A stretch of 64,000 bases of DNA from Longimicrobiales bacterium (GTDB lineage Bacteria; Gemmatimonadota; Gemmatimonadetes; Longimicrobiales; Gaopeijiaceae): NCBI GenBank assembly GCA_965116905.1, contig OZ220732.1:4000001-4064000 (forward strand), written 5' to 3'. Position numbers and translations under genes: made by a program. Positions 37,747-58,465 of this stretch are shown piece by piece. The notes beneath the pieces were generated by a model that worked only from the letters and a program-made list of their open reading frames with translations, was not told the origin of the DNA and made no database searches. How positions within the stretch are numbered: the first letter of the stretch is position 1; the number at the start of each line of letters is the position of its first letter.

Positions 37747-37983
37747 CGGCGCGCGTCCCGGCATCTGGCCGCGTCCGGACATGAGCTGTGTCCCACCATC
37801 TGCAGTGCGACGGTTAGTATAGTTTACGCCACAAACTGCACCAACAGCACGACGGGGGCTGCAGGGGCACATCGAGTGCCCGGTGGAGCCTGACCGTTGT
37901 TCTTGCGGCCCGCGACCACGCAGTCCCACGTTGCGGCACACGCCCAGAAGCGACGCGGCCACCACGCCGAGCTGGAGCCAGCC

Positions 37984-40164: not shown

Positions 40165-40195
40165 ATGCCGACGCGACACGCCCGGAACATATGTG

Positions 40196-40224
40196 TTGCC
40201 TACCAGCAAGCGGACGTGTATGAT
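40196..40224 (+). promoter_or_regulatory. sigma70-like promoter of the RiPP precursor gene
   Basis: TTGCCT (40196-40201), N17, TATGAT (40219-40224), 50 bp upstream of the ATG; RBS AAGGGAGG. Confidence 0.65.
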
Positions 40225-40274
40225 TGTCTGAGAGTGTTGTCCTGTGTCGAAGTTCAGAACTAAGGGAGGAAGCT

Positions 40275-40526
40275 ATGAGAAGCGGCGACGAAATGTTGCA
40301 GCAAATCGTGGAGAAGTCCGCGCTGGACACGGAGTTTCGGCAACGGCTTCTTACAGATCCAAAGACCGCGATCAGTGGCGAGCTGGGCATTACGATCCCC
40401 GATTCGATGAACATCAGGGTCCATGAGAGCGACATGCAGACGGTGCATCTTGCGCTGCCGCCGGATCCGAACATCACCGAGGAGCAGCTCGAAGCCATCT
40501 CGGCCGGCCTCTGCTGCTGCTGGTAG
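40275..40526 (+). CDS. srpE: NHLP (nitrile-hydratase-like leader) proteusin precursor, core LCCCW
   Basis: Leader IVEKSALDTEFRQRLLTDPK...IRVHE...VHLALPP and double-Gly-type motif ITEEQLEAISAG, then core LCCCW. The symbol is the name recalled for the sponge srp homolog. Confidence 0.93.
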   Translation: MRSGDEMLQQIVEKSALDTEFRQRLLTDPKTAISGELGITIPDSMNIRVHESDMQTVHLALPPDPNITEEQLEAISAGLCCCW

Positions 40527-40667
40527 AGCCCCGTAGTCGGCGAGTAGTCGACTAACAACGCATTCGAGATCGCTCCCATCCGGCGGACATGTTGCCGCCG
40601 TGCTGGTGGATCGTACAATCAATCCGTCTTCTCACTCTGGACCCTGCGGCGCGGGAGGTAGCGACGC

Positions 40668-41924: not shown

Positions 41925-41926
41925 CC

Positions 41927-43204: not shown

Positions 43205-43210
43205 GAGGTC

Positions 43211-43912
43211 ATGGCAATGAGTAAAACGGCAGCCGCCCGGACCGACGGCGTCTGGAAGGTCTTCCAGCAGGAAGCTGAATCCGTCGAGGCGGTCCGCGAC
43301 GTCAGCCTGACCATAGAGCGTGGCGAGTTCACCGCGCTTGCGGGACCGTCGGGCTCCGGCAAGACGACGCTGCTGAATCTGATCGGTGGCCTGACCAGCC
43401 CCACAAAGGGACGGGTCTGGGTGGCCGGGCACGAGGTGAGCCGCATGTCGACCCGGGATTTGGCGCGGCTACGGCTCGAGGAGGTTGGCTTCGTCTTTCA
43501 GGCCTATAACCTGCTCCCCGTGCTCACGGCATTGGAGAACGCGGAATTCCCGATGCTCCTCCAGGGCGTGCCCGTGAAGGAGCGTCAGGCGCGGGTCCGC
43601 GAACTCTTTGCGCGAACGGGCATGGAAGGGCTCGAAGACCGGCGCCCGGGCAAGCTGTCAGGCGGCCAGCAGCAGCGCGTCGCCGTCGTCCGTGCGGTGG
43701 CTGGCCGTCCGGCCCTCGTGCTTGCGGACGAGCCGACGGCGAACCTCGACTCGGTCACCAGCGAAGCGCTCCTCGATGTCATGGGCGAGCTGAATCGCGA
43801 CCTCGGAGTGACCTTCGTCTTCGCCACCCACGACAGCCGCGTCATGGAGCGGTGCCGGCGTCTGGTCCGCATGGTCGACGGCGCTGTGCGTGACGACGAG
43901 CCCGGATCCTAG
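43211..43912 (+). CDS. ABC ATP-binding protein, LolD/MacB-like
   Basis: GPSGSGKT, GFVFQAYNL, LSGGQQQR, LADEPTANLD, ATHD. Confidence 0.95.
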   Translation: MAMSKTAAARTDGVWKVFQQEAESVEAVRDVSLTIERGEFTALAGPSGSGKTTLLNLIGGLTSPTKGRVWVAGHEVSRMSTRDLARLRLEEVGFVFQAYNLLPVLTALENAEFPMLLQGVPVKERQARVRELFARTGMEGLEDRRPGKLSGGQQQRVAVVRAVAGRPALVLADEPTANLDSVTSEALLDVMGELNRDLGVTFVFATHDSRVMERCRRLVRMVDGAVRDDEPGS

Positions 43913-43933: not shown

Positions 43934-45226
43934 CTAGCAGCCTAGACCCTGGGACACCTGGGCATAGCTGGTAAGCGGGACCGCGCACATCCGATGCCAG
44001 TCCTCCTGGTCGATGACGGGTTGGTTCAACAGTTCAATCATCTCGTCGAAGTCATGGAGCGCGGAGCACCCCACCACCGCCGGGTCCGCTGCCTGCCGGT
44101 GTCGTGGCCAGGCGCGGTCACGAGCATGGCGCCAGAAGCCGCTGTTGTACCTGGAGCCGCACGAGTAGTGCCAGCCGACGAACAGGCCGTAGCGGATCAT
44201 GTTGTTGATGAGGAACCGATTGACCACGGGCGCGTCGCGCTCGAGATGCTCCGGCGGACGGCTGAGGCGCGTCCGGAGCACCATCCCGATCTGCAATTGG
44301 GCGGATACGATCGCCGTTGCCTCGAGCGGCTCCATGAAGGCCGCTGCGTTGCCGATGCGGGCCACGGCACCGTCGTAGATCCGACGGTGGACGAAGTTGG
44401 GAAACCCGATGACGGCGCGCTGCTCAAACTCGGACACGCCGTCGGCCTCGAGGAGCCTGTCAAAATCCGATTCGACGTCGACCAGGCTCGACAGGTTGCC
44501 GTTGAAGACGTACCCGTAGGATGTGTGGGCAGTGAGCGGAATCACGAATACCCAGCCGTGTCGACGCGCAACCGCGCGCGTGTACGTGTGCTGGAGCACC
44601 GGTCCATCCCGCTCTTCGCTGAAGACCGGCGGACAGCGGCGTATGACGGCCGTATCGGTGGGGATGAAGGGAAGGTCGATGTGCTGGTCGGGACGGAGCT
44701 CCCTGGGGAACCCGCGCGCATCGAACACGAGGTCGTACCGTTCCGGCGGCCGGCCCTCGAATTCCACGCGAGCGCCGCCACTCACCCTGGTGATATCGAG
44801 TACCCTCGCATCGATGTGCCGCGCGCGCGTGCCTTCGTGGAGCAGGTCCGCCATCAGGTCGGCGGACAGGTGGTAGGCGTAGGACACCTGCTGCGGCGTG
44901 AAGTAGTGGGTGAAGTCCCGATCGCGTCGGCCCCATCCCTCGAACGCGACACCGTACTTGCGAGTCCCACTCAGGCGCTGCTGTACGGTGTCGTGCGGCA
45001 GACTCGTCAGCTGTTGCAGCTCCCGAACCAGGCTCGGCCAGCTGCCTTCACCGACTCCGATCACCGGGATCCGCGAGTCGTATATGTGGTGCAGCTCGTG
45101 ATCGCTGTCGGGATGAAGACGCGTCACGCTGGCGGCCGCCAGGCACCCTGCGGTCCCTCGCCCCACAACCGCGATCTTCCGTAGGGATTCGCTCTTCCGT
45201 AAGGACTCGGTGCCTGGGTGTATCAC
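43934..45226 (-). CDS. srpI: Flavin-dependent tryptophan halogenase family (putative peptidyl-Trp brominase)
   Basis: VVGRGTAG (GxGxxG), IGVGEGS, TRKYGV (catalytic Lys position), FDARGF, GWVFVIP (WxWxIP variant), IGNAAAFMEPLEAT; GTG start after GGAGG. The symbol is recalled from the srp cluster. Confidence 0.88.
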   Translation of the reverse strand: MIHPGTESLRKSESLRKIAVVGRGTAGCLAAASVTRLHPDSDHELHHIYDSRIPVIGVGEGSWPSLVRELQQLTSLPHDTVQQRLSGTRKYGVAFEGWGRRDRDFTHYFTPQQVSYAYHLSADLMADLLHEGTRARHIDARVLDITRVSGGARVEFEGRPPERYDLVFDARGFPRELRPDQHIDLPFIPTDTAVIRRCPPVFSEERDGPVLQHTYTRAVARRHGWVFVIPLTAHTSYGYVFNGNLSSLVDVESDFDRLLEADGVSEFEQRAVIGFPNFVHRRIYDGAVARIGNAAAFMEPLEATAIVSAQLQIGMVLRTRLSRPPEHLERDAPVVNRFLINNMIRYGLFVGWHYSCGSRYNSGFWRHARDRAWPRHRQAADPAVVGCSALHDFDEMIELLNQPVIDQEDWHRMCAVPLTSYAQVSQGLGC

Positions 45227-45367
45227 CCCAAATGCCCTCCACGACCGTCGACTGCGGGACTCTTCGATGTGCCGCGGACAGCAAGCTAACACGATCTTCG
45301 CATCATCGCCGTCGGCGCGGCTCTCGTCGTTTCCTTGGGGGACGAGGTCTGCACCGTTCACCCGAGG

Positions 45368-45376
45368 TGTTATACT
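45368..45376 (+). promoter_or_regulatory. Extended -10 promoter (TGnTATACT) for the NHLM export/maturation operon
   Basis: TG-T-TATACT in the divergent intergenic region, 57 bp before the GTG at 45433. Confidence 0.5.
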
Positions 45377-45432
45377 ACCCGGCGAGACCGGTCCGTCCCT
45401 GCTTGATCGTGATGAGGAGTCTGTGTGGAGCC

Positions 45433-45984
45433 GTGTTCAATAACCCGCTTGGTTCGTTTCACAATACCGTTGCCGAAGCAAAGGAAGAACGCGAGCAACT
45501 CGACCGTCTGCTGACGGTTTCCACACCGCGAGAGCGCCTGCTTGTCACAGTCATCGCTCTTGTGTTGGTCATCTTCATCACCTGGCTCTTTTTCGGCAGC
45601 GTAGCCCGTAGCCTTGCGATCGACGGCGTACTCGAGGAGTCCGGCCAAAACCTGTCCGAAGCCGCCCAGTCAGTGCAGGCGCTGGTCTGGATCGAGAACG
45701 ACGTTCTGCCCGAGGTCAGGGCCGGGATGCCGGCGTCGATCGAACTGGGCGGGGCGGATGGAGACGCGGGCACGATTGGCGGAGAGATTACGATGATTTC
45801 CGCTGTCCGCCTGCCCGAGCTTCCAGCGGCCTTCGAGTCCGCAGTGCCGGCCTCCGTCCATCGCGTCCAGATCGCGCTCGACGAAAGCCCCGACTCTTCC
45901 TTCGTTGCGGGCCGGGAATGCCGGATCGTCATCGAAATCGGCACCCAGGCTCCGATCGCACTCCTGCGACTGGGGCAACCATAG
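45433..45984 (+). CDS. Short NHLM-system secretion (HlyD-like) accessory protein
   Basis: EQLDRLLTVSTPRERL, one TM ending WLFFGSV...DGVL, and a C-terminal beta domain ending QAPIALL. At 183 aa it lacks the long coiled coil. Confidence 0.72.
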   Translation: MFNNPLGSFHNTVAEAKEEREQLDRLLTVSTPRERLLVTVIALVLVIFITWLFFGSVARSLAIDGVLEESGQNLSEAAQSVQALVWIENDVLPEVRAGMPASIELGGADGDAGTIGGEITMISAVRLPELPAAFESAVPASVHRVQIALDESPDSSFVAGRECRIVIEIGTQAPIALLRLGQP

Positions 45985-45985
45985 C

Positions 45986-48199
45986 ATGCCGTCGATCGCC
46001 TTCAGAGGAGTTGGCGACAAGAAAGCCGCCGGGTTCAAGGCAAAGCACAGGATCACCACGCCCATTGTGCTGCAGGTGCATGCGTCGGAGTGCGGTGCCG
46101 CCTGCCTCGGCAGCATCCTCGGCTACTTCGGACGCTGGGTTCCGCTGACCGAGCTGCGGGAAAGATGCGAAGTGAGTCGAGACGGAAGCAGTGCGGCGAG
46201 CATCGTGCGCGCCGCCAGACATTATGGTCTCGAATCCAGCGGACTCAGTTTGCGCGCCGATCAACTGAAAAAGCTGCCGTTGCCGCTGATCGTGTTCTGG
46301 CAATTCAGTCATTTCCTCATCGTCGAGGGGTTCGACGGCCGCAACTTCTATCTCAATGATCCGTCCACGGGACGGCGCAAGCTTTCCGCCGAGGAGTTCA
46401 CCCGGGGCTACAGTGGCATTGCGCTCCGATTCAAGCCGGGCCCCGACTTCAAACCCGGCGGTGAACGGCCCGGACTGGTCAGACAACTGCACGCCCTGCT
46501 CGCCGGATCATGGGGCGTGCTCACCTGGGTGATCGCGTGCGGCCTCATGTTGACGCTGCTGGCCCTCATTGTCCCCGCATCTCTGGGCGCATTCGTGGAC
46601 GATGTGCTGGAAGACCGGGGGCCCTGGGGCGGCATCGTGACGGCACTGCTCGGCGGCGGCGTCCTCGTCTATATCCTGTCCCTGCTCAAGCACCGGTTCC
46701 TGAAGCGACTCGCAGTCCGGATTTCGGTGACCGGCTACAGTCGTGGCTTGTCGCGGCTGCTGCGGTTGCCGGTGGAGTTCTTCGAACACCGGCTCGTGGG
46801 CGATCTGACGGATCGAGTCTCGTCCATCGACAGGATCGCGAGGAATCTGACGGAGCAGTTTCTTGTGCTCGTTATCGACATGGGAATGAGCGCCGTGCTG
46901 CTTGCTGCCATGTTGGTCTACGACGTCCGGCTCACACTGGTCGTGCTCGTTCTGGCCGTTATGCATGGCGTGCTGGCGCACTTTCTGAACGGCGTCAGAG
47001 CCGTTCGAAGCCAGGCGATGAGACGCGAACAGGGACTGCTGATCGGCATCGGCATGCAGATGCTGAGCCATGCCGACAACCTGCGCATGACGGGATCGGA
47101 CGACCATTTCTTTTCGCGGTGGACCGGTCATCAGGCGCGCGAACTGCATGCGCGCCAGCGCTACTCGGAGCTGGGCTCCGTCAATGCCGCGCTTCCGGGT
47201 CTGATCGTCGCCCTTCGAGGCGCGGCGATCCTGGGCATCGGCGGAAGTCTGGTCCTGGCCGGGGAAATGACCCTGGGGGCGCTGGTCGCGTTCTACATCC
47301 TGAGCGAAATGTTCCTGGCGCCGGTCGGGCGATTCCTGGAGTTCGCCGAGAAGCGCCAGGCCCTCGAAACCGATCTGCAGCGACTCGAAGACATCTCCAG
47401 GACCGCCGAGGACCCCGCCCTCATCCGCCAAAGTCAGCACTCCGAGTCGATTCCGACTTTCAAGGGCCAGCTTCAGCTCGCCGGCCGGCTTGAGCTGCGA
47501 GACGTCACCTTCGGGTTCAACAAGAGCCGGCCGGCTCTCATCAAGGACTTCAACCTCCTGATCAGGCCGGGGCAGCGGGTTGCCGTGGTCGGTCCGAGCG
47601 GTTCCGGCAAGTCGACCCTCGCGCGTCTGATTGCCGGTGTCTACCAGCCCTGGTCGGGCGACATCCTGTTCGATGGCTATCCGCGGGATGAGATTCCCGA
47701 TGGGGTGCTGCGGCAGTCCATCTCCATGGTGGATCAGGAGGTGGTGCTCTTTTCCGCGTCCGTGCGCGACAACATCACCCTGTGGAACCCCGCCGTTCCG
47801 GACGAGGCCATCTTCGCGGCGGCGCGCGACGCCCGGATCCATGACGAAATCCTGCTTCGGCCGGATGGGTACGCCACGCGGGTCGATGAGGGCGGCGTGA
47901 ATTTCAGCGGCGGCCAGCGGCAGCGGCTGGAGATCGCCCGCGGGCTGGTGGGCGATCCCACGCTCCTCATTCTGGATGAGGCGACCAGCGCCCTCGATGC
48001 CGCGACGGAGGAATACGTCGATGATGCCCTGCGCCGTCGGGGTGTCACCTGCCTGATCGTGGCGCACCGGCTGAGCACCGTGCGGGACAGCGACGAGATC
48101 ATCGTGCTCGACAAGGGCGTCGAAGTGCAGCGCGGGACGCACGACGAGCTGATGGGGGATCGGGACGGCACCTACTACAAGCTGGTCAGATCCGGCTGA
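45986..48199 (+). CDS. NHLM-type peptidase-containing ABC transporter (C39 + TMD + NBD)
   Basis: LQVHASECGAACL (Cys), WQFSHF (His), LNDP (Asp); GPSGSGKST, FSGGQRQR, ILDEATS. Confidence 0.95.
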   Translation: MPSIAFRGVGDKKAAGFKAKHRITTPIVLQVHASECGAACLGSILGYFGRWVPLTELRERCEVSRDGSSAASIVRAARHYGLESSGLSLRADQLKKLPLPLIVFWQFSHFLIVEGFDGRNFYLNDPSTGRRKLSAEEFTRGYSGIALRFKPGPDFKPGGERPGLVRQLHALLAGSWGVLTWVIACGLMLTLLALIVPASLGAFVDDVLEDRGPWGGIVTALLGGGVLVYILSLLKHRFLKRLAVRISVTGYSRGLSRLLRLPVEFFEHRLVGDLTDRVSSIDRIARNLTEQFLVLVIDMGMSAVLLAAMLVYDVRLTLVVLVLAVMHGVLAHFLNGVRAVRSQAMRREQGLLIGIGMQMLSHADNLRMTGSDDHFFSRWTGHQARELHARQRYSELGSVNAALPGLIVALRGAAILGIGGSLVLAGEMTLGALVAFYILSEMFLAPVGRFLEFAEKRQALETDLQRLEDISRTAEDPALIRQSQHSESIPTFKGQLQLAGRLELRDVTFGFNKSRPALIKDFNLLIRPGQRVAVVGPSGSGKSTLARLIAGVYQPWSGDILFDGYPRDEIPDGVLRQSISMVDQEVVLFSASVRDNITLWNPAVPDEAIFAAARDARIHDEILLRPDGYATRVDEGGVNFSGGQRQRLEIARGLVGDPTLLILDEATSALDAATEEYVDDALRRRGVTCLIVAHRLSTVRDSDEIIVLDKGVEVQRGTHDELMGDRDGTYYKLVRSG

Positions 48200-51138
48200 T
48201 GCGGGACACGAGGCCGGAGCACACGTCCATTGCGGAACTCGCCACCAGCGCGGGCGAGTCCGTGCCCTGCGCCGGCAACCTGCCCGTGAAGCTCGACGAC
48301 CCGGACTCCGTCTGGTTCATCGACGAGGGCGCCGTCAATCTGTTCCTGGTCGAATTCAGGGACGGGTTGGATCATGCGGCACCCCAGCACCTGCTCCGCC
48401 GCGAAGCGGGCTGGCTGCTGCCGGGCGTCGCACCCAACGAACCGCACGGGGCGGAAGATACCACGCTCAGCCTGGTCGCCAAGGGATCGCCGGGCACCAT
48501 TCTGAAGCGCCTGCCGGCATCCCTGCTCTCCGAGGTCGATCCGGCGGAGCTGGCGGAACAGACGGAAACCTGGCTGGCCGCGATCACGGACACCCTCTCG
48601 CGCTTTGCGAGTCACCGTCCACGGCCGACGGCGCTGGCCGAGCCCGGTCTGACACGGAGCCTCGCCCCCTGTACGCTCTCCGTACGACGAGGCGTCGTAT
48701 GGGTATCCGAACCCCCACGCGGCGCCAGCCTCTTCATGGACCTGGTCGACCAGGCGGCACTTACCGGAGGGAGCGGCCCGCACGAAGCGCTGATACCGCT
48801 GACGCGGGCAAGCTGGCTCACGCTCTCGGACGAGGTAACGCTCTCGGCCAGTTCGACCGAGACACTGGCACGGCAGGGCACCCTGCTCTCGGCGCTCGCA
48901 TCCTTTCACGCGGTCGCCTTCGCCGTGGAGCGCCTGAACCGCGTACTGGCCGTAGTCGACCACGCGAATCTCGAACGCGCGCGGACCACGAGCCGCTACG
49001 CGGCCGAGAGAACTGCGCGGCAGCGGCTTTTCAACATCTATGACCTGCCGATCGACCGGGACGCGAGTGTCGAGGACACGTCGCTGGCGGACGCGCTGCA
49101 GCCGATCGGACGCCGTGAAGGGATTGATTTCAAGATCCCCGTGCGCCCGGGATCCTCCGGTGCCCCGGTCAGCCTCGTCGACGTCCTCGTCGCTTCAGGC
49201 GTGCGCGCCCGGCGCGTGCGGTTCACGAACGAGGGCGCCTGGTGGCGGGGCGACAGCAACGCGATGCTGGCGTTCCGCGCCGAAGGCGGCCAGCCTGTGG
49301 CGCTCCTGCCGGGATGGTTCGGGCGCTACCGGGAATTCGACCCGGTCAGCAAGCGTAGTGTCCGGATGACGGCGGATCGTGCCGCCGCGCTGGCGGACGA
49401 GGCCTGGGTGTTCTACCGGCCGCTGCCCGAGGGGAACGTGAGGCCGGCGGACCTGCTGAGATTCGCGCTGCGTGGATCGGCCGCGGATCTGGCGCGGCTG
49501 GTGATGGCCGGCCTTCCGGGCGGCCTGATCAAGCTGGTGCCCGCACTCGCGCTCGGGTTCGTCGCAAACCAGACGGCGGGCGGCGGAACCGCCGGAGCGG
49601 TCTATGCCGCGGCCGTGGCGGTGGCGGGCTTCGGCGTGCTCGGCGCCCTGCTGCACCTGCTTCAATCCACGGCGATGACGCGGCTCGAGGGGCGCTCGGC
49701 TTCGCGCGTCGAAGCGGCGTTCTGGGACCGCCTCATGCGCCTTCCGCCAAGCATTCTGCACCGCCATCCGTCGGGCGATCTGGCCATGTCGGGGATGACG
49801 TTCCAGAATCTCCGCGACGGGTTGCAAGGCGTCGTTGCCGACGGCCTGCTATCGATCCTCTTTCTGCTTCCGGTTCTTGGTGTCATCTTCCTCTACGATG
49901 CCACCCTCGGGGCCATCGCCCTCGCCTTCAGCCTGGTTTCGCTCCTGATCACGGTTGTCCTCGGACTGCGCCAGGTTCCCCCCTGCGGGCGGATGATCCG
50001 CGCGGCGCGGCGCGTCTCCGGCCGGTTGTTCCAGATCGTGGGCGGCATAAGCAGACTGCGTGTGGAAAACGCGGAAGCGTCCGCTTTCGCCATGTGGGCG
50101 CGGGACTACCGGGAGCAGAAACGCGCCGAGCTCGAAATGGCCGGGCTCGAGGGACATTCGCGCGCATTCGGCGCCGCGCTCCCCTTTCTTGCCGCCGGGG
50201 TCCTGCTGGCGGTCGTGGCCGTGGGCGACAGGGACCTTCCGGTGGGCGATTTTCTCGTCGTCTACCTCGTCCTCATCGCCTTCCAGTACGCCATCGCCCG
50301 ACTCGGCGAATCCCTTGGCACGGTCGCCGCCATGCTCCCGGGGTTCGACCAGATGCGCCCGCTCCTCGCCGCGGCTCCCGAGACCGAGGCCGAAGGAGCG
50401 CCGGTCGAGTATCTGGGCGGCGACATTCTCTTCGACCGCATTTCCTTCCGGTACGATCCCGACGGGCCGCTGATCCTGGACGATGTCACGATCCGCGCCC
50501 GCCCCGGAGAATTCATCGCGATCGCGGGTGAGTCCGGCGCCGGCAAGAGCACCCTCTTCCGGCTGGCGCTCGGATTCGACCGGCCCACCGCCGGCGCGGT
50601 CTATTACGATGGACGCGACCTGAGGCACCTGAACCTGAAGCAGGTGCGCCGCAGAATCGGCGCGGTGCCGCAATCCGTCGGCCTGCATCCCCTCGATATC
50701 TGGGACAATCTCGTCGGTCACCACGATAAGGTGGCGAGTGACGAGGTATGGGCGGCGGCGCGAGTCGCCAACGTCGAAGAAGAGATCAAGAGCATGCCGA
50801 TGGGCATGATGACCATGGTCGGCACGAGCGGAAGCGTCCTGTCGGGCGGCGAGAGTCAACGTGTCACTATTGCCCGGTCGGTGATCGGCAGCCCGCAGAT
50901 CATGCTCTTCGACGAGGCCACCAACTGGCTGGACAACGAGAGCCAGGCCAATGTCATGCGGAATCTCAACGCCCTGACCTCGACCCGGGTTGTTATCGCG
51001 CACCGCTTGTCCACCCTGGAACAGGCCGATCGCATCTACGTGCTGCAGGCCGGAAAAGTCGTACAGAGCGGCTCCTTCGACGAACTCTTGGAGGGCGACG
51101 GGGTGTTCAGGGAGTTGGTGAAAAGGCAGATCGCCTAG
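48199..51138 (+). CDS. NHLM-type second ABC transporter subunit (no peptidase)
   Basis: N-terminal cNMP-binding-like segment (VWFIDEGAVNLF), SGVRARRV...WW, FYRPLP, TMD, GESGAGKST, LSGGESQR, FDEAT; coupled to the previous gene. Confidence 0.92.
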   Translation: MRDTRPEHTSIAELATSAGESVPCAGNLPVKLDDPDSVWFIDEGAVNLFLVEFRDGLDHAAPQHLLRREAGWLLPGVAPNEPHGAEDTTLSLVAKGSPGTILKRLPASLLSEVDPAELAEQTETWLAAITDTLSRFASHRPRPTALAEPGLTRSLAPCTLSVRRGVVWVSEPPRGASLFMDLVDQAALTGGSGPHEALIPLTRASWLTLSDEVTLSASSTETLARQGTLLSALASFHAVAFAVERLNRVLAVVDHANLERARTTSRYAAERTARQRLFNIYDLPIDRDASVEDTSLADALQPIGRREGIDFKIPVRPGSSGAPVSLVDVLVASGVRARRVRFTNEGAWWRGDSNAMLAFRAEGGQPVALLPGWFGRYREFDPVSKRSVRMTADRAAALADEAWVFYRPLPEGNVRPADLLRFALRGSAADLARLVMAGLPGGLIKLVPALALGFVANQTAGGGTAGAVYAAAVAVAGFGVLGALLHLLQSTAMTRLEGRSASRVEAAFWDRLMRLPPSILHRHPSGDLAMSGMTFQNLRDGLQGVVADGLLSILFLLPVLGVIFLYDATLGAIALAFSLVSLLITVVLGLRQVPPCGRMIRAARRVSGRLFQIVGGISRLRVENAEASAFAMWARDYREQKRAELEMAGLEGHSRAFGAALPFLAAGVLLAVVAVGDRDLPVGDFLVVYLVLIAFQYAIARLGESLGTVAAMLPGFDQMRPLLAAAPETEAEGAPVEYLGGDILFDRISFRYDPDGPLILDDVTIRARPGEFIAIAGESGAGKSTLFRLALGFDRPTAGAVYYDGRDLRHLNLKQVRRRIGAVPQSVGLHPLDIWDNLVGHHDKVASDEVWAAARVANVEEEIKSMPMGMMTMVGTSGSVLSGGESQRVTIARSVIGSPQIMLFDEATNWLDNESQANVMRNLNALTSTRVVIAHRLSTLEQADRIYVLQAGKVVQSGSFDELLEGDGVFRELVKRQIA

Positions 51139-51236
51139 CAGTCCGTGGATAAACCCACGCGAGCACCGAGAGCGGCGAGGCGCCGGGCCGGATGCATTCG
51201 CCGCTCGAATGCCGCGGGGGTTTGTTCACGGGCTGC
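51138..51236. repeat. ~100-bp long-hairpin / MITE-like element
   Basis: Terminal inverted repeats GCAGTCCGTGGATAAACCCACGCG and CGCGGGGGTTTGTTCACGGGCTGC (20/24 matches; three mismatches are G-U compatible); inner stem GAGCGGCGA/TCGCCGCTC. Confidence 0.7.
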
Positions 51237-51265
51237 CTGATCCGAATCCCTCTCCGGAGACATCG

Positions 51266-52564
51266 ATGAACGGATCGATTGACGCGCACACCCTCGTATC
51301 GAGAGCCGACAAGGACAGCGACTTTCGCGAACGTCTTCTCCGGCACCCCAGGGAAACCGTCGAGAAGGAATTCGGCGTGACGCTGCCGGAAGACCATGAG
51401 ATTCACGTACACGAGGAGACCTATGGCGCGACACATGTGGTGCTTCCGCCGCGGAACAGGTTCAGCGAGGCCGAGCGGGAGGCGGCCAGGACCGGCAGGG
51501 CATCGCTCGAGTATCTTCGGAGTACTCTCCACGATCCCGCACCGCCCCTTCGTTCTCCGGCACCGAAACGAGGCGAAGTCCGAAGCGGCGGGGCCGGCTC
51601 CGAGGCGCTTGCAGAGGCGGCGAGGGAAGGGATCCGCCGAGGGCTTGCCTTCCTGGAATCCACAATCGACGAGAATGGGGCTTGGCACTGCATCCGGTTC
51701 AACGTTGCCGACCCGGACATTCCCAGGCACTTCGAGAGGCCTCCTTTCGTGTCGGCTCTCTGCGCGCTCGCCCTTGAGAGATCCGATGAGCCGCGGGCCA
51801 GGGCGATATGCACGGCGACGAAGGCGTATCTCATCGACACCATCGAGTATCCCGGACTGTGGCGATACTACCGTCACCTGCCCCCGGATCTCGACAGTAC
51901 CTCGCTCTGTGCGATGGTTATCGGGACGCACCCCTGGATCTGGCTCGGACGGAATGTTCCCGGGATACTGGCGAATCGCGACGAGGAGGGCCGCTTCATG
52001 ACCTGGGTGCTGGCGGAAGACGAACCCGATGTCGTGTCGCCGTTTCGCATCGAGGCCGACCCCGTCGTCAATGCGAACGTCATCGCCTGGCTGGGCGACC
52101 GTCCGGAAACCAGGGATGCCCAGCGATGGTTGGAACACCTGGTGACCGATGGGAGCCTGGAGGGCTCGTCGAAATGGTATCCCGACACGATCTCGATCCA
52201 CTATGCGATCGCCCGCGCGACGGTTCGCGCAAAGCCCGCCCTCGAGGCGTTGCGCCCGATGCTCGCAGATCGTATCCTCGGCCTCCGTGACCGGAAGGGA
52301 GGATTCGGCAACGTTCTTCAGACCGCTCAGGCGGTGTCGGCGCTCTACAGTGTCGGAAGCCTCGGGCGCATCGACGTGAAGCGGGAGGTGGAGGGGCTGA
52401 TGAACTCGCAGCGCGGGGACGGCAGCTGGCCGGAGCTGCTCGCGTTCGGCGACCAATCGTTGAAGTGGGGTTTGGTGGGGCAGATCGGGCATGGCTCCGA
52501 GGCCGTGACCTCCGCGTTCTGTATCGAGGCCCTGGAGTGTCTCGTCGAAGGGCTTGGGGCCTGA
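51266..52564 (+). CDS. NHLP-leader domain fused to a prenyltransferase/squalene-cyclase-repeat (class II terpene cyclase-like) domain
   Basis: Residues 1-77 align with the precursor leader (DSDFRERLLRHP...EFGVTLP...IHVHEE...HVVLPP). The rest has QW-like repeats (FLESTIDENGAW, LRDRKGGFG, MNSQRGDGSW), PPDLDSTS at the DxDD position, VVNANV and GSEAVTSAFCIEAL. Confidence 0.8.
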   Translation: MNGSIDAHTLVSRADKDSDFRERLLRHPRETVEKEFGVTLPEDHEIHVHEETYGATHVVLPPRNRFSEAEREAARTGRASLEYLRSTLHDPAPPLRSPAPKRGEVRSGGAGSEALAEAAREGIRRGLAFLESTIDENGAWHCIRFNVADPDIPRHFERPPFVSALCALALERSDEPRARAICTATKAYLIDTIEYPGLWRYYRHLPPDLDSTSLCAMVIGTHPWIWLGRNVPGILANRDEEGRFMTWVLAEDEPDVVSPFRIEADPVVNANVIAWLGDRPETRDAQRWLEHLVTDGSLEGSSKWYPDTISIHYAIARATVRAKPALEALRPMLADRILGLRDRKGGFGNVLQTAQAVSALYSVGSLGRIDVKREVEGLMNSQRGDGSWPELLAFGDQSLKWGLVGQIGHGSEAVTSAFCIEALECLVEGLGA

Positions 52565-52566
52565 GC

Positions 52567-54888
52567 GTGCCCACCGATACGGCGCGCGCGGGCCCACGGC
52601 CCGGGATCCTGGCCCGGACGACTCTCGCGGACCGGGGCATCGTCAAGCTTCCCGCGCTCACCCCGCACCTTCGATTCCACGATATCGGCGAGGGGCGGGT
52701 GCTCCTCGTCTCCGAGTCGTTCAATACGCTGCTGCACGGCAAGCTGTACGGCGACTTGCTGCCGCTGCTCGACGGCCGGCACGCCGGGGACGAGATCGTC
52801 GCGGCCCTCGAGGGCGCCCACGCGCCCACCAACGTCCTGGCGGCCCTGGCCGCGTTCGCCGCCAAGGGGTACCTGGTCTCCGCCGATCACGGGATGGACC
52901 TGTGCCAGGCAGCCTACTGGTCGTCGCTCGGGGCGTCGCCACGCTGGGCCGAGGAGCGGCTGGCGCAGGCGCGCGTCACGGTCGAGGGTGACGACGGCCG
53001 GCTCGCCCGGCATCTGGAGGAGGCCGGCGCCAGCGTGGGAGGCACCGGTCCGGCGCTGACCGTCGTCGTCTGCGCCGACTATCTCGATGCGCATCTCGCC
53101 GAGGTGAATCGGCGCCAGCTCAAGGCGAGAGCGCCGTGGACCCTGGCGCGGCCGAGCGGGATGGAGCCGCTGTTCGGCCCCATCTTCCGCGCTGACGGGC
53201 GGGGGCCTTGCTGGGACTGCCTCGCATGCCGCCTGCGCAGCCACGGGGAAGTCCACGCTTTCCTGCGCAACGTCGCCGGCGAGGAAGCCGCCTTCAGGCC
53301 GTTCGCGGCCCAGCCGGCCGCGCTGGGAGCAGTGTACGGGCTGATCGCGGCGGAGATCGTCAAATGGCTGGTGCTGGATCAGGCGGCCCCGATTCACGAA
53401 CAGGCGATCGCGATGGACATCGCCACATTCACGAGTTCGCAGCACCGGGTCGTGCGCAGGCCGCAGTGTCCGGAGTGCGGCGACGAGGCCCTGCGCCGGC
53501 CGGATCGACCGCCCCTTCCGGTGTCTCTGAAGGCGAGCCCCAAGGCCCATCGCAACAGCGGCGGCGCGCGCGCCGTGCCGCCGGGAGCCACCCTGGCGAA
53601 GTACCGGCATCTGGTGAGCCCGGTCAGCGGCGTCGTCACCTGGCTGTCGCGCACCACCGATGAGACCGACTCCTGGCTGCACGTCTACTGGGCCGGGAGC
53701 AATTCCGGGATGAGAAGCCGAAGCCTGAGTTCGCTGAGGCGCAGCCTGCGCAGCAAGAGCGCCGGCAAGGGCAGCACCCGGCAGCAGTCCAGGGTCAGCG
53801 CGCTTTGCGAGGCGATCGAGCGGCATTCGGGCGCCCGCCATGGGGACGAGATCCGTGTTGCCAGGCGATTCATCGAGTTCGCCGGGCGAGAAGAGGCGAT
53901 CCACCCCAACGATGTGCAGCTGTTCAGCGAGAGTCAGCTCGACGACGCGGAGAGCATCAACGCGAAGGGCCACCCCTACAACATCGTCCCGCCACGTCTC
54001 GATCCCGACGCCGAGATCGATTGGACCCCGGTCTGGTCATTGACGCAGCGGCGGCACCGGTACCTGCCCACGTCCATCCTGTACAGCATGCTGGCCGAGG
54101 AGCGCGGCCCTGCGGACCTGATTGCCGATTCGAACGGATGCGCCGCGGGCAACACCCTTGAAGAGGCGATCCTGCAGGGTTTCTACGAACTGGCCGAGCG
54201 CGATGCGTTCGCCGTCTGGTGGTACAACCGGCTGCAAGTGCCGGCGGTCGATCTTTCCAGCTTCGACGACGAGTACCTCGAATCGGCCGCGGACTACTAC
54301 GGCCGCCATGAGCGGGACCTGTGGATGCTCGACGTCACCTCCGATATCGGCATTCCCACCTTCGTCGCGCTCTCGCGTCGGCCGAACGCCGAAACCGAGG
54401 ACATCATCTACGGCGCCGGCACCCACGCCGACCCGCGGATCGCCGCCCTGCGCGCGCTCTGTGAACTGAACCAGTGCCTCACCTGGCTGCCGCGTCCCGG
54501 GGCGGCGGACGGCCGGCCCAGGATCGACGATCCGCTGGCGCTCCGGTGGTGGAAGACCGCCCGCCTCGCCGAATGTTCCTGGCTGGCGCCGGCGCCGGAC
54601 GAGCCGCTCCGCAGGGCTTCGCAGTATCCGGTGACCGAAGCGGCGGACACGCGCGAAGATGTGGAATACTGCCGCTCGCTTGTCGAAGCCAGGGGCATGG
54701 AGTTCCTGGTGCTCGATCAGACGCGGCCGGATATCGGCATGCCCGTGGCCCGGGTCATCGTGCCGGGCATGCGCCATTTCTGGGCAAGGTTCGCGCCCGG
54801 GCGCCTGTACGACGTGCCCGTCCATCTGGGGTACCGCGAGCACCCGCTCTCCGAAACCGGCCTGAATCCCGCACCTGTGATTGCGTGA
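52567..54888 (+). CDS. srpC: Fused E1-like/YcaO cyclodehydratase (TOMM C-D fusion)
   Basis: N-terminal RRE-like region, GPCWDCL and PQCPECG zinc sites, SAGKG, CEAIER, SNGCAAGNTLEEAILQGFYELAERDA, C-terminal LNPAPVIA. The symbol is recalled from the srp cluster. Confidence 0.94.
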   Translation: MPTDTARAGPRPGILARTTLADRGIVKLPALTPHLRFHDIGEGRVLLVSESFNTLLHGKLYGDLLPLLDGRHAGDEIVAALEGAHAPTNVLAALAAFAAKGYLVSADHGMDLCQAAYWSSLGASPRWAEERLAQARVTVEGDDGRLARHLEEAGASVGGTGPALTVVVCADYLDAHLAEVNRRQLKARAPWTLARPSGMEPLFGPIFRADGRGPCWDCLACRLRSHGEVHAFLRNVAGEEAAFRPFAAQPAALGAVYGLIAAEIVKWLVLDQAAPIHEQAIAMDIATFTSSQHRVVRRPQCPECGDEALRRPDRPPLPVSLKASPKAHRNSGGARAVPPGATLAKYRHLVSPVSGVVTWLSRTTDETDSWLHVYWAGSNSGMRSRSLSSLRRSLRSKSAGKGSTRQQSRVSALCEAIERHSGARHGDEIRVARRFIEFAGREEAIHPNDVQLFSESQLDDAESINAKGHPYNIVPPRLDPDAEIDWTPVWSLTQRRHRYLPTSILYSMLAEERGPADLIADSNGCAAGNTLEEAILQGFYELAERDAFAVWWYNRLQVPAVDLSSFDDEYLESAADYYGRHERDLWMLDVTSDIGIPTFVALSRRPNAETEDIIYGAGTHADPRIAALRALCELNQCLTWLPRPGAADGRPRIDDPLALRWWKTARLAECSWLAPAPDEPLRRASQYPVTEAADTREDVEYCRSLVEARGMEFLVLDQTRPDIGMPVARVIVPGMRHFWARFAPGRLYDVPVHLGYREHPLSETGLNPAPVIA

Positions 54889-54895
54889 GGAGAAC

Positions 54896-56008
54896 ATGGA
54901 TACCGACGCGGCCGTCGCACTGACCCAGGACCGTCTCGCCGAGGAGGGCGACACGATGGGTGAGCTGCTCGGGCACTTCCGAAATCGAATCTCGCCGGTC
55001 CTGATCGGAGATCCGCAGTGGGAGCGCATACTCGAGCGCGCCGGAAAGCTCCCCATCACAATGGGCGCGCTGCCATTCGGTTTCGAACTGCCGCTGCATG
55101 CAAGCGAGCCCAGGGCGGACTTCGGCGTCTCCCTCGCGAGCGGAACGAGAACGGCGGCCTTTTTCCAAGCGCGCGCACGCACCGACGCGACGGATGAGAC
55201 CGCGAGGGTGATCACGCGGCTCTTCGGCCGGATGGAGACGGAAGACTCGCCCCTGCGTGGGATTGTCGGCCGCAAACTGATGCTGGAATACGATATCGGC
55301 TCGGCAGGAGACGGTGAGCGTTCACTTCCGGGAATGTTCCTCCGGCCCGGTGAACGCCCGATTCTCGGCGCCCGCGGCCAGGTGGATGATGTCCGTGCGG
55401 TCGCGGACGCGCTGTTCTCCTGCGCAGGCTGGGAGATGAGCGGCCCCGAGCGCGAGAACATCGAACGGGTCTACCTGGCACAGCCGGGAGACACGCGCAT
55501 GGATTCGTTCGGTGTGTTCCCGTCGCGCTCGCGGTTCATCCGCCTGGCGATCATGGGCTTCAGATCGCGGCACGCGACGTGGTGCTATCTCGAAGACGCC
55601 GGCTGGCCGGGTCATATCCCGGCTGTCGACTCCCTGATCGCGCGCTTCGACGAGCGCGCGAGCATTCGCAGGACCGGGGTGAACATCGATGTGCGGGAGG
55701 AGGGCGTCGGACCGACGCTCGGCCTCACGCTCATCGTCAAGCAACGTTATACGAAGGACTCGCGCTATTGGCTCGACGGCCTGACCGATTGGCAGCCGTT
55801 CCTGGAGGCCCTGGGCCATGAGGACCTTGTCGTTCCGGAGAAGCTCGGGGCGCTTGCCGGCTGGGTCTCGAAGCCGACAACGCTCTTTGGGAAGTCCGGG
55901 CGGTTCGTGCTGCTGCGTGGCATTCACCATATCAAGCTGGTCGTATCCGGAGACCGGCTTCGACAAGCCAAGGCCTACGTGTTCATGGTGCTTTCCGGGG
56001 CGGTGTAG
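54896..56008 (+). CDS. Hypothetical protein; candidate ABBA (PT-barrel) peptide prenyltransferase
   Basis: GAGGAG RBS directly after YcaO; five apparent beta-hairpins separated by helical segments. The CDS is secure; the function is inference. Confidence 0.6.
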   Translation: MDTDAAVALTQDRLAEEGDTMGELLGHFRNRISPVLIGDPQWERILERAGKLPITMGALPFGFELPLHASEPRADFGVSLASGTRTAAFFQARARTDATDETARVITRLFGRMETEDSPLRGIVGRKLMLEYDIGSAGDGERSLPGMFLRPGERPILGARGQVDDVRAVADALFSCAGWEMSGPERENIERVYLAQPGDTRMDSFGVFPSRSRFIRLAIMGFRSRHATWCYLEDAGWPGHIPAVDSLIARFDERASIRRTGVNIDVREEGVGPTLGLTLIVKQRYTKDSRYWLDGLTDWQPFLEALGHEDLVVPEKLGALAGWVSKPTTLFGKSGRFVLLRGIHHIKLVVSGDRLRQAKAYVFMVLSGAV

Positions 56009-56031
56009 CCCGCCGGCAGCCCGTGGGCGGG
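56009..56031. terminator. Small hairpin between convergent genes at the end of the RiPP operon
   Basis: CCCGCC-N11-GGCGGG; no U-tract. Confidence 0.3.
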
Positions 56032-56032
56032 A

Positions 56033-58465
56033 TTAGCGTCCCGTCCCGAAGTTCGGCGCGAGCGTCTCGATCCCCGCGGCGGCGCCCGATGCGGTTTCCT
56101 CGATCACCGCGGCGAGCGCATCGAAATCGTCCACCCCGCAGAGGCCGGCGATCGTGGCCCTGGCTCCGGTGGCCGCCGATTCGACCTCGAACCCCTCGTC
56201 CGCGACAAGCCGCAGCGCGCCGCGGAGATTCCGCCACAGCGCCGCCGCCGCCGCGAGCCGCTCGGCGGCATCCTCAGTGATCAACCCACGATCGCCCGCC
56301 GCCCGGAAAGTGTGCTCCGCGTCGCCCGCCGGACGTGCCGCCGCATCGCCGCCGGGCGCCATGCGCAGGAACAGCGCGGCGCGTTCGATGTCTCGAAGAC
56401 CTCCCCGCATCGTGGCGATCGACTCCAGGTCCGGTACGCCGGTTTCGGCGGCATGCTCTCCGGGCTTGCGCAATTCAGCCAGCAGCATCTCGCGAACCGA
56501 AGGTCCGCCCAGCGCCTCGCGCAGCCCTACGGACACCCGTTCCGCAACGTCCTCGTCGCCCGATCCCCACACGCACCGGGCCCGCGCCAGACCCACCGGA
56601 TCCCATCCCGAACCGGGGTTGCGGAGTTGTTCGGCGAATGCGTCAAGCGGCTGGATCTCGCCCGCCCCGCCACGCGTGAACGATTGGGGCGACAGCAGCA
56701 GGTTGTTGCGGGTCAGCGCGCGCAGCGCCTTCCGGAAGCGGCCGCACAGTTTCCGATAGTGCCTGGCCGGGGTTCCCTCGTACACGAACCGGATGTCGAG
56801 CGTCTCGCCCGGCATCGCTTCTCCGCTCGCCAGGGGTCCCTCCACGACGACCGCCACGCCGCCGCTGCCCTGCGGCACACCGCGATCGGCAAAGTCCTCC
56901 TCTACCGCGGACAGCACGGTGGCGATGGAGGCCTCCCCGACGCGTGACAACGCCGTCACCGCCTCGGCGATCGACAAGCTCCCGCGCATCGTGTGCACCG
57001 CGATCTGGAAGACCTTGCCGTTCGACCACTCGCGCGCCGCATCCACCGCCTCGCTGGCGTCCTGCACGTGAGTGTCGGCAAGCTGGGCCTTCATCTCGGC
57101 CACGCCGAGTTCGTGGGTCCAGTACAGGCGTGCCAGTCCGCACCGGGCAATCGCCTCGGATTCCGGGTCCGACAGGAAGCCCTCCGGGAGCTCCAGATCC
57201 GTGAACTCCCGCTCCCTGAGCATGTCGAGCAACACCGGGGCACGGTTGATCCATCCGGCAATGCGAGGAGCGGCGGCGTGAATCTCGGCGATCGCGTCGA
57301 ATGCGTCGGGGCGTGCCGCGAACGCCCGGCTGTCATAGGCGCTCCAGTCCTTGATGTCGGGATAGAACTGCGCCCGCTGAAGATCGAGCAGGGGGTCGAT
57401 GGTCTGGAACCACCGCTTGGGGAAGAGGGCCAGGCCGTTCATCTGAATGTAGCTGCCCGGCAGCTGCGGCGAGGCGGCCTCGTTGTGATGCTGAAGCAGC
57501 GGATAGCGCCGGTTCGACGTGTGGTGGTCGGCGTGGCGCTGCATGTTGTAGTACAGCCAGTTGGTGAACTTGTAGGCCGCGCTCCAGGCGTGCCGCGGCT
57601 TGACGGGCTCGAACCGGCCGGCCGGCGTGAGGACCCGTCGCAACCCGTAGTGCTGCACATAGTTGCTGATCTTCATCGAGAATACGACGTTGCCGCACAG
57701 AACCACGTAGACCAGGGCTGCCCACGGACCGCCCATCCAGAGTATGATCCCGTACCAGAAGATGAGCTGCACGGCGTAGCGCCAGAACGCGTTCGTATGG
57801 TGCCATGCCGGCAACTGGCGACGCGTCAGGCGGCGGCGTTCGAACCGCCAGGCCCCCAACAGGTTGTTCGCCACCTCCGCGGGCAGGTATCGCCAGAAGC
57901 TCAGACCCTTCGGAGAGGACCCCGGGTCCCGGGGCGTGCACACCCACGGATGATGAATGTAGACGTGCTCGGTTGCATAGTGCGGGTAGGAGACGGAAGC
58001 CAGCAGGAACTCGCCGAGGCGACGCTCCCAGAGAGCGCGGCGGTGGACCAGCTCGTGGCCGACGATGAAGACGGTCTGTCCCACCATCGTGAGAATCACG
58101 GCCACGCACCAGACTTCCCACAGCGCCAGATGATCGGAAACCAGTGCCTGCCAGAGCGCGAAGATGAACGTGGCCGGCCAGAGCACCGCCCAGAGCCAGA
58201 GCGAGAGCTTGTACAGAAACAGCTGGCTCTCGCTGGTGGTGGCCGGATCCATGTTCCGCTCCTCCAGGCCGAATATCCTGTCGAAGCGGTCCGCGAGCGC
58301 GTAGAAGACCAGCGGCACCGCGATCCACCAGCCACCGAACACCGCGGCGCACGCGACGAGCGGAAAGATCGCAAGGGGCGCGAAGTGTGGGAGCGCATTC
58401 GCAACGGAAGCCTCGACGATTCTCCGTTCCATGGCCACGGGGGGACTCGTACTGTGTGCTTCCAT
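56033..58465 (-). CDS. AlkB-type membrane di-iron monooxygenase fused to a degenerate GlnE-like adenylyltransferase domain
   Basis: AlkB boxes GHELVH, EHVYIHH, NYVQHYGL, NMQRHADHH, PQLP.SY. C-terminal ~420 aa resembles GlnE AT (P.LLDML, ALSRVGEA.I..VL..VEEDF, VAVVVEGPLA..E, LDIRFVY, ARAR, RGGLRDIE). ATG at 58465 inferred. Confidence 0.78.
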   Translation of the reverse strand: MEAHSTSPPVAMERRIVEASVANALPHFAPLAIFPLVACAAVFGGWWIAVPLVFYALADRFDRIFGLEERNMDPATTSESQLFLYKLSLWLWAVLWPATFIFALWQALVSDHLALWEVWCVAVILTMVGQTVFIVGHELVHRRALWERRLGEFLLASVSYPHYATEHVYIHHPWVCTPRDPGSSPKGLSFWRYLPAEVANNLLGAWRFERRRLTRRQLPAWHHTNAFWRYAVQLIFWYGIILWMGGPWAALVYVVLCGNVVFSMKISNYVQHYGLRRVLTPAGRFEPVKPRHAWSAAYKFTNWLYYNMQRHADHHTSNRRYPLLQHHNEAASPQLPGSYIQMNGLALFPKRWFQTIDPLLDLQRAQFYPDIKDWSAYDSRAFAARPDAFDAIAEIHAAAPRIAGWINRAPVLLDMLREREFTDLELPEGFLSDPESEAIARCGLARLYWTHELGVAEMKAQLADTHVQDASEAVDAAREWSNGKVFQIAVHTMRGSLSIAEAVTALSRVGEASIATVLSAVEEDFADRGVPQGSGGVAVVVEGPLASGEAMPGETLDIRFVYEGTPARHYRKLCGRFRKALRALTRNNLLLSPQSFTRGGAGEIQPLDAFAEQLRNPGSGWDPVGLARARCVWGSGDEDVAERVSVGLREALGGPSVREMLLAELRKPGEHAAETGVPDLESIATMRGGLRDIERAALFLRMAPGGDAAARPAGDAEHTFRAAGDRGLITEDAAERLAAAAALWRNLRGALRLVADEGFEVESAATGARATIAGLCGVDDFDALAAVIEETASGAAAGIETLAPNFGTGR

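Follow-up and report, generated by a model that had tools for sequence, protein, structure and literature searches.

A predicted ABBA-barrel prenyltransferase and leader-fused terpene cyclase in an srp cluster of a Longimicrobiales bacterium

In the published reports, MppC is a leader-dependent lanthipeptide Trp C5-geranyltransferase found in a LanM/Nif11 setting (PMC12715784), and NctPC is a fusion of an ABBA barrel with an MstE-like class II cyclase that geranylgeranylates and then cyclises Trp (PMC13290415). The ABBA/PT fold has been described as five repeated alpha-alpha-beta-beta units that make up an antiparallel barrel of ten strands with helices around it (PMC3227686). In the srp clusters of sponges, SrpC turns three Cys into thiazolines, and SrpI brominates the indole C6 on the leader-bound peptide in a leader-dependent manner (PMC10858898, PMC10286304). 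These clusters are reported to be widespread across bacterial phyla in sponges, with a highly transcribed precursor (bioRxiv 10.1101/2023.06.09.544420). As far as the accessible text goes, the srp descriptions cover cyclodehydration and C6 bromination only, with no prenyl step (PMC10858898, PMC10286304, bioRxiv 10.1101/2023.06.09.544420). Here we analyze a 64,000-nucleotide stretch of a Longimicrobiales bacterium (assembly GCA_965116905.1, contig OZ220732.1, positions 4,000,001 to 4,064,000), which we call the window. Our subject is a gene in it for a 370-amino-acid protein, the barrel protein, which a reading of the sequence alone (the original prediction) had taken for a divergent peptide prenyltransferase. 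We found that it is predicted to be a soluble ABBA/PT-barrel prenyltransferase-like protein and that the locus around it is an srp cluster.

We built an AlphaFold2 model of the barrel protein from a 106-row alignment. The model (mean predicted local distance difference test [pLDDT] score, 94.2; predicted template modeling [pTM] score, 0.92) is a ten-stranded barrel of five hairpins, with strands at residues 61-66, 75-81, 127-132, 146-149, 201-207, 215-222, 259-267, 270-280, 335-351, and 354-367, helix pairs between the hairpins, and an extra strand at 325-332. The original prediction had quoted ten short motifs as five beta hairpins. All ten are present, at residues 61, 74, 128, 145, 205, 215, 262, 274, 344, and 358, and each coincides with a strand of the model, which confirms the five-hairpin pattern. 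The VIA structure search of 48,161 chains gave a Z of at least 8 for 19 chains, every one an ABBA/DMATS prenyltransferase (Z 10.6-16.6); rank 20 reached only 5.8. These matches included MpnD (Z 16.6, root mean square deviation [rmsd] 4.6, 301 residues aligned), FgaPT2 (15.3, 4.6, 293), NphB (14.0, 3.9, 267), and PagF (11.8, 4.6, 256). Every Foldseek match listed was to an aromatic, indole, or cyanobactin prenyltransferase, although the template modeling (TM) scores were modest (0.39-0.53). Thus, the fold predicted for this protein is the ABBA/PT barrel of PagF, NphB, and the DMATS enzymes, as had been proposed. A transmembrane or lipocalin-like barrel was rejected, with Z of at most 5.8 over about 140 aligned residues. 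The barrel is shared with DMATS enzymes (MpnD, FgaPT2, CymD, and 6-DMATS), NphB/CloQ, and cyanobactin F proteins (PagF, PatF, and DciF) over about 250-310 residues, whereas the sequence identity to them is 6-12%, a Pfam match is missing, and the hairpin at residues 325-351 is extra. The sequence lacks an (N/D)DxxD motif and the model is globular, as in the soluble ABBA enzymes. Because the fold match lies far above background and polar strand residues are conserved in alternation, the resemblance is more than chance. A shared fold alone does not show function.

The gene had been described as unannotated, and the searches bear this out. Pfam and NCBIfam searches with the protein gave zero family matches, Pfam gave no consistent match across the 106 aligned members of the family, and PDB sequence searches with the protein and two profiles found nothing below E 0.4. 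The PF11991 (Trp_DMAT/DMATS) profile matched neither the query nor 105 relatives, and there was no Pfam match to PF11468 (NphB/CloQ) or the cyanobactin F profiles. A hunt for PF11991 or PF11468 members in the window's genome and in sets of 201 and 301 genomes turned up none, but its controls gave no signal either, so this negative carries no weight. An Atlas match to Trp_DMAT (0.90) is no more than a lead, its recognition (1326) having fallen short of the mark. Of 7,995 candidates that were scored, 1,024 are homologues, and the family has 483 representatives at E<=0.001; informative names are absent from the homologue lists. The closest named relatives, at 90-93% identity, are metagenome-assembled genomes (MAGs) of Gemmatimonadota, and those at 71-81% belong to Pseudomonadota, Acidobacteriota, and other groups. 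The gene is present in one copy in its genome and has a homologue in 10 of 30 related genomes. Its ATG begins 7 nucleotides (nt) downstream of the stop codon of the preceding YcaO gene, and its third-codon-position GC is 0.79. A shadow or chance open reading frame (ORF) was rejected on the basis of the ribosome-binding site (RBS), the codon bias, and the 1,024 homologues.

We then looked at conserved residues in the alignment. Alternate strand positions carry E64, D75, E131, D133, R216, D265, H345, K347, K359, and Y361, and these ten together with R211 are kept in 47-58 of the 58 members below 33% identity. The original prediction had placed Arg, Lys, and Tyr on the strands. Those that are conserved, with one His (R211, R216, H345, K347, K359, and Y361), lie in the C-terminal half; the first hairpins instead bear the conserved acids E64, D75, E131, and D133, which the original prediction had not mentioned. 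By analogy with structures of related enzymes, R216, H345, K347, K359, and Y361 would hold the diphosphate, D75, D133, and E131 would ligate Mg2+, and E64 would act as a base. The proposed role of E64 follows the strand-1 base of DMATS and PagF-type enzymes. The acids of strands 2 and 3 suggest metal dependence, unlike DMATS. Position 331 is F in 67/106 rows and Y in 16/106, and the exposed F331 on the late hairpin may be a parallel of F340 in MppC.

These residues also bear on whether the barrel transfers prenyl groups at all. It could instead hold or carry the thiazoline peptide as a scaffold, or catalyze another kind of reaction. PatF is an inactive family member, the identity to solved enzymes is very low, and the barrel always lies near YcaO; in one 851-amino-acid protein (P0388) a YcaO domain is joined to the barrel domain, through either a true fusion or an assembly frameshift. 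Also in favor of this explanation, strand 4 has G146 and F148, apparently where DMATS enzymes carry a Lys-x-Tyr pair. However, eleven charged or polar residues are conserved below 33% identity, and genes for a terpene cyclase, a polyprenyl synthase, and MpaB/Lcp proteins are found as neighbors, so that we leave a nonprenylating barrel only a slight chance. Active prenyl transfer of some kind by the barrel enzyme is very probable.

The window holds an LCCCW NHLP precursor, a YcaO protein, and a flavin-dependent Trp halogenase, the set that marks srp clusters (Table 1). The locus is thus the published srp cluster, which the original prediction had not recognized. The precursor ends AG-LCCCW, and the YcaO protein is over the cut-offs of TIGR03604 and TIGR03882. 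Shared with the described clusters are the LCCCW core, an NHLP leader with ITEEQL, the YcaO protein, and the Trp halogenase, and srp clusters, like the relatives found here, span many phyla of sponge-associated MAGs. An operon-like run leads from the C39-ATP-binding cassette (ABC) transporter through a second ABC transporter, the NHLP-fused cyclase, and YcaO to the barrel gene, which is last; the halogenase and precursor lie upstream of this run. In the accessible srp literature, "prenyl" had no main-text occurrence bearing on srp. We found no literature assigning a prenyltransferase to srp, and the original srp and NctPC papers (Nguyen 2021, Hubrich 2024) may already note one. A complex prediction of the barrel enzyme with SrpE scored 0.05 against a mark of 0.32 and is evidence neither way. 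Within 37897-43912 (+ strand), the precursor has a prolyl oligopeptidase and a MacB/FtsX-type ABC set at its sides, an arrangement seen here and in only a few relatives. In one sponge metatranscriptome run, contigs of relatives covered 30/30 bins of 51200-56100; the share was 0.08, the data were contigs only with no silent control, and we did not count this as expression.

Table 1. Features of the srp locus, in window coordinates
Feature	Position	Strand	Basis
SrpE-type NHLP precursor; leader ends ITEEQLEAISAG; core LCCCW at 40509-40523	40275..40526	+	TIGR03793 over cut-off
SrpI-type flavin-dependent Trp halogenase (longest ORF)	43934..45361	-	PF04820, E 1e-41
Export genes of NHLP type: a short ORF resembling HlyD, a C39 peptidase-ABC transporter, and another ABC transporter	45232..51138	+	Pfam/NCBIfam
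NHLP-like domain plus class II terpene cyclase-like domain; motif LPPDLDST	51266..52564	+	Model, alignment
Fused YcaO cyclodehydratase of SrpC type (longest ORF, with the real start probably more internal)	52465..54888	+	PF02624, E 9e-95
RBS GAGGAG, 3 nt 5' of ATG	54887..54892	+	Sequence; overlaps YcaO stop codon 54886-54888
ABBA/PT-barrel prenyltransferase-like protein, 370 amino acids	54896..56008	+	Open frame; structure model, fold search
Acids of strands 1-3: E64, D75, E131, D133	55085..55294	+	91, 92, 86, 93% of 106 rows
R211, R216, D265, H345, K347, K359, Y361, and extra hairpin with F331 at its tip	55526..55978	+	Alignment
Membrane di-iron desaturase/hydroxylase fused to GlnE-like domains	56033..58465	-	PF00487, PF03710, PF08335

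The C-terminal part of the leader-fused cyclase-like protein (model pLDDT 88.7) is a single domain like MstE, and its best Foldseek match is the drimenol synthase AsDMS (E 3.5e-13, TM 0.77); further matches are two myxobacterial entries named squalene-hopene cyclase, and MstE. The second Asp of the LPPDLDST motif (51893-51895) aligns with the catalytic D333 of AsDMS, the position occupied by Asn in the AsDMS D333N structures. The residue before the first Asp is Pro and not Asp. With an (alpha/alpha)6-type domain in the model and the catalytic Asp of the DxD(D) motif in place, the upstream gene is predicted to encode a class II terpene cyclase that retains its catalytic residue. The LPxDLDS motif is present in 81/81 full-length copies of the cyclase, and since the motif is intact in all of them, a prenyl source is expected. 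It is likely that the barrel enzyme supplies the substrate of the cyclase, as the original prediction had it. The NHLP-like domain of the cyclase (51266-51520, + strand) is about 36% identical to the SrpE leader and has FSEAER where SrpE has ITEEQL; it may be a leader mimic or a docking module.

The same cyclase raises the question of the order of the two reactions. A free prenyl diphosphate could be cyclized first (for example, geranylgeranyl diphosphate [GGPP] to an allylic labdane diphosphate) and then transferred, or the barrel enzyme could act on a small molecule that is joined later. The best cyclase matches are drimenol/drimenyl-diphosphate synthases bound to farnesyl diphosphate (FPP), the best barrel matches are small-molecule indole prenyltransferases, and a GlnE-like domain is conserved in the cluster, all of which would fit. 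However, drimenyl diphosphate is not allylic, and a single-domain, MstE-like cyclase that carries an NHLP-like domain points to work at the peptide level. Distant members of the barrel family always adjoin NHLP/Nif11 precursors in the loci examined, and a GGPP-synthase-like gene was not found in the window's genome with the one query used. We give cyclization before transfer, or a small-molecule substrate, a small chance.

To see how the barrel enzyme, cyclase, and core sequence are linked, we compared loci of homologues, divided at 58% identity to the query and not by core sequence. The close type (at least 58%) comprised 80 genome and 18 metagenome loci, and the distant type comprised 24 metagenome loci, several on short contigs; the loci are related and partly near-duplicate (e.g., L136/L137), so counts are not independent events. 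In the close type, the cyclase lies within the fetched stretch (10 kb) in 68/80 genome and 14/18 metagenome loci, and 10 of the 12 genome loci that lack it have an upstream flank below 5 kb. Every readable core of this type has Trp (69/69 genome and 15/15 metagenome loci). The halogenase is present in 43/80 and 8/18 loci, and gene order shuffles among close loci while the gene set stays constant. Among the 24 distant loci we found YcaO in 22, the desaturase in 14, and neither cyclase nor halogenase. The 17 distant cores are LCCCG (4), LSCCL (4), RCCC (3), LCCCGI (2), and LCCCL, LCCCT, LCCCGF, and RCCCCW (1 each); RCCCCA and RCCCCI cores occur too. Thus, the cyclase and the terminal Trp go missing together in these sister clusters. 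In four genomes of the Trp-less type (92-97% complete) the cyclase was not found with the query used, which did detect it in a control genome, and it was not found in five such genomes (92-97% complete) in a run without a positive control. The halogenase query also found nothing in genomes of this type, in a search from which the control was absent; PF04820 gave weak matches only (E >= 3e-10), on other contigs. The desaturase/GlnE fusion occurs in 47/80 and 11/18 close loci and in 14/24 distant loci, and possibly oxidizes the prenyl chain.

The sister clusters limit what can be said of the acceptor. Their enzymes are 36-54% identical to the barrel protein and retain the polar set, yet 16 of 17 sister cores have no Trp. 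Because Trp-less cores stand beside intact enzymes, Trp is not required family-wide, and the sister acceptor must differ; Trp as the acceptor for the whole family was rejected on these grounds. The original prediction had named "Trp or a terminus." Trp is the likelier acceptor in the LCCCW type, but it cannot serve the Trp-less clusters. Alternatively, the prenyltransferase might act on a group common to all cores, namely, the N-terminal amine exposed once the leader is removed, the C-terminal carboxylate, an uncyclized Cys sulfur, or the thiazol(in)e ring. That intact homologues accompany LCCCG, LCCCL, LCCCT, LCCCGF, LCCCGI, LSCCL, and RCCC cores speaks for a shared acceptor, and so do S-adenosylmethionine (SAM) methyltransferases in 15/24 sister loci, as expected for end-capping, and two paralogues in the RCCC loci L161, L162, and L164. 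The product would then resemble the terminus-prenylated linear cyanobactins aeruginosamide and muscoride. Prenylation of the N-terminal amine by ABBA-type enzymes has precedent, being listed in PMC13290415. On the other side, the cyclase is confined to loci with Trp cores, and the LCCCW type sits on a long stem in a quick tree (0.54, support 100) and differs at pocket positions. Position 150 is R in 100/100 close rows and Y in 26/33 distant rows, and N263, T278, and I280 are replaced by H, S, and Y/F in the distant type. These sequence differences suggest a changed substrate in the LCCCW type. The tree held 21/100 close rows and all 36 others, with groups preset by identity, so that placing a type on one side of a branch is partly circular. 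Overall, we consider a shared acceptor unlikely.

The loci of this second srp-like family (L021/L172, L022, L023/L174, L025, L125-L138, L157, L160-L164, L167, L169, and L224-L226) have the cores LCCCG, LSCCL, LSCCA, RCCC, RCCCCA, and others. Methyltransferases and FAD oxidases accompany the barrel enzyme, YcaO, and the desaturase fusion in them, and there is no cyclase or halogenase nearby. The RCCC clusters L161-L164 (e.g., L164:11363-12562) encode a paralogue with G62W, E64G, and other pocket changes; in L161, L162, and L164 it accompanies an ordinary copy and an MpaB/Lcp-type oxygenase. In L097:14878-21108, L099:14671-20819, and L226 two cluster types are adjacent: LCCCW with its enzyme stands beside a WCCCGN/WCCCGQ or LCCCGI core that is accompanied by a second paralogue.

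Isoprenoid genes accompany the sister enzymes. In L172, L174, L169, L127, and L126/L175, the gene after the desaturase encodes a polyprenyl synthase (PF00348, E 2e-38). An MpaB/Lcp oxygenase is found in 4/24 sister loci (L161-L164) and in L092, a geranylgeranyl-reductase-like gene is found in 2/24 (L130 and L133), and UbiA is found in L092, L105, and L140. The chain length made by polyprenyl synthases follows from the residues preceding the first DDxxD-type motif. In the cluster synthase, Cys/Ser stand at the fifth and fourth positions ahead of this motif, and the window's genome has one synthase with Tyr at that site and one of a long-chain type. By this rule, the sequences point weakly to GGPP in the LCCCG clade and to FPP in the window's genome. 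The UbiA gene immediately precedes a second precursor, with core MCCCGI, in L092:12709-14123 and L105:13782-15141, and L140 holds both; UbiA may be a different prenyltransferase class for a Trp-less core.

Next, we considered the relation to MppC and NctPC. All distant members of the barrel family in the loci examined lie beside NHLP or Nif11 precursors, and their partner is LanM, a radical-SAM-like protein, or none that is obvious. Sequence homology extends to an uncharacterized protein that a Pseudanabaena plasmid encodes within a LanM/Nif11 cluster (tblastn E 6e-5; HHalign 99.7%, E 5e-27). Enzymes of the MppC/NctP type are ABBA barrels whose genes lie next to an NHLP or Nif11 precursor, as the window's gene does, and by this analogy the barrel protein likely belongs to the MppC/NctPC family. 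From the accessible descriptions, MppC is likewise a soluble ABBA barrel beside a long structured leader (Nif11 there, NHLP here), whereas in the window YcaO takes the place of LanM as partner, the core is a linear peptide of five residues ending in Trp, and a cyclase is present. The barrel of NctPC, like the window protein, has low similarity to cyanobactin enzymes (PMC13290415). Unlike in NctPC, prenyltransferase and cyclase are encoded by separate ORFs on either side of YcaO, the cyclase carries an NHLP-like domain and by Foldseek resembles AsDMS more than MstE, and the core is azoline bearing and brominated. We found no prenyltransferase-cyclase fusion among longer proteins, which is weak evidence; only the YcaO-joined form turned up. 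The neighbors also differ from those of cyanobactin clusters, being of NHLP type and not the protease/macrocyclase pair PatA/PatG. Elsewhere in the family, a lanthipeptide-like NHLP precursor is followed, between two LanM-like genes, by a distant homologue (L024:7381-10132), and a downstream ORF there is cyclase-like by eye, with no Pfam match. A cyanobacterial homologue (L179:8001-9794) is fused to a 2-oxoglutarate-Fe(II) oxygenase domain and is annotated as an oxygenase only.

Taken with the predicted ABBA fold, the conserved polar set, and the company of an NHLP precursor, YcaO, and a cyclase, these comparisons support the reading of the gene as a divergent peptide prenyltransferase. The route that we favor resembles a split NctPC: the barrel enzyme would prenylate the C-terminal Trp of SrpE, and the leader-fused cyclase would then cyclize the chain. 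It is favored because Trp, brominase, and cyclase appear jointly and NctPC provides a precedent, and we put its chances at about even. In this route, an SN1-type transfer would take place to a free indole position with the leader still attached, as for MppC, and FPP would be the likelier donor in the window's genome. The cyclase Asp would protonate the terminal alkene, and the chain would close onto the indole as in NctPC. The C39-ABC pair would finally remove the leader and export the product. Several observations weigh against this route. Identity to solved prenyltransferases is just 6-12%, at an rmsd of 3.9-4.9 Å; in AsDMS, the best structural match to the cyclase, the ligand is free farnesyl diphosphate, fitting the reverse order; L082 and L103 have full flanks and yet no cyclase within 10 kb; the Trp-less sister cores lie beside enzymes with the same catalytic set; the LCCCW type is nested among the distant type on the quick tree; and the counts come from related, partly redundant loci.

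A broader reading goes further. Here, a wide unnamed leader-associated family would lipidate poly-thiazol(in)e micropeptides at a site that no ABBA enzyme is known to modify, for example, a Cys sulfur or a ring carbon of a thiazole. The Trp-less clusters would be the older state, to which the srp lineage added Trp, the brominase, and the leader-mimic cyclase, giving a brominated peptide-terpenoid hybrid throughout sponge microbiomes. We regard this reading as quite unlikely. The srp cluster itself was already known, and peptide prenylation and cyclization chemistry has precedent, which limits the surprise. Nevertheless, the srp product likely bears a terpene lipid. If it is prenylated or cyclized, searches for a plain bromo-tris-thiazoline peptide would miss the srp compound. 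The predicted mass shifts on the brominated core are +136, +204, or +272 Da, and a five-gene reconstitution is conceivable. The few positions at which the pockets differ offer a direct way to probe the specificity of the barrel enzyme, and the Trp-less sister clusters hint at a second acceptor chemistry within the same family.
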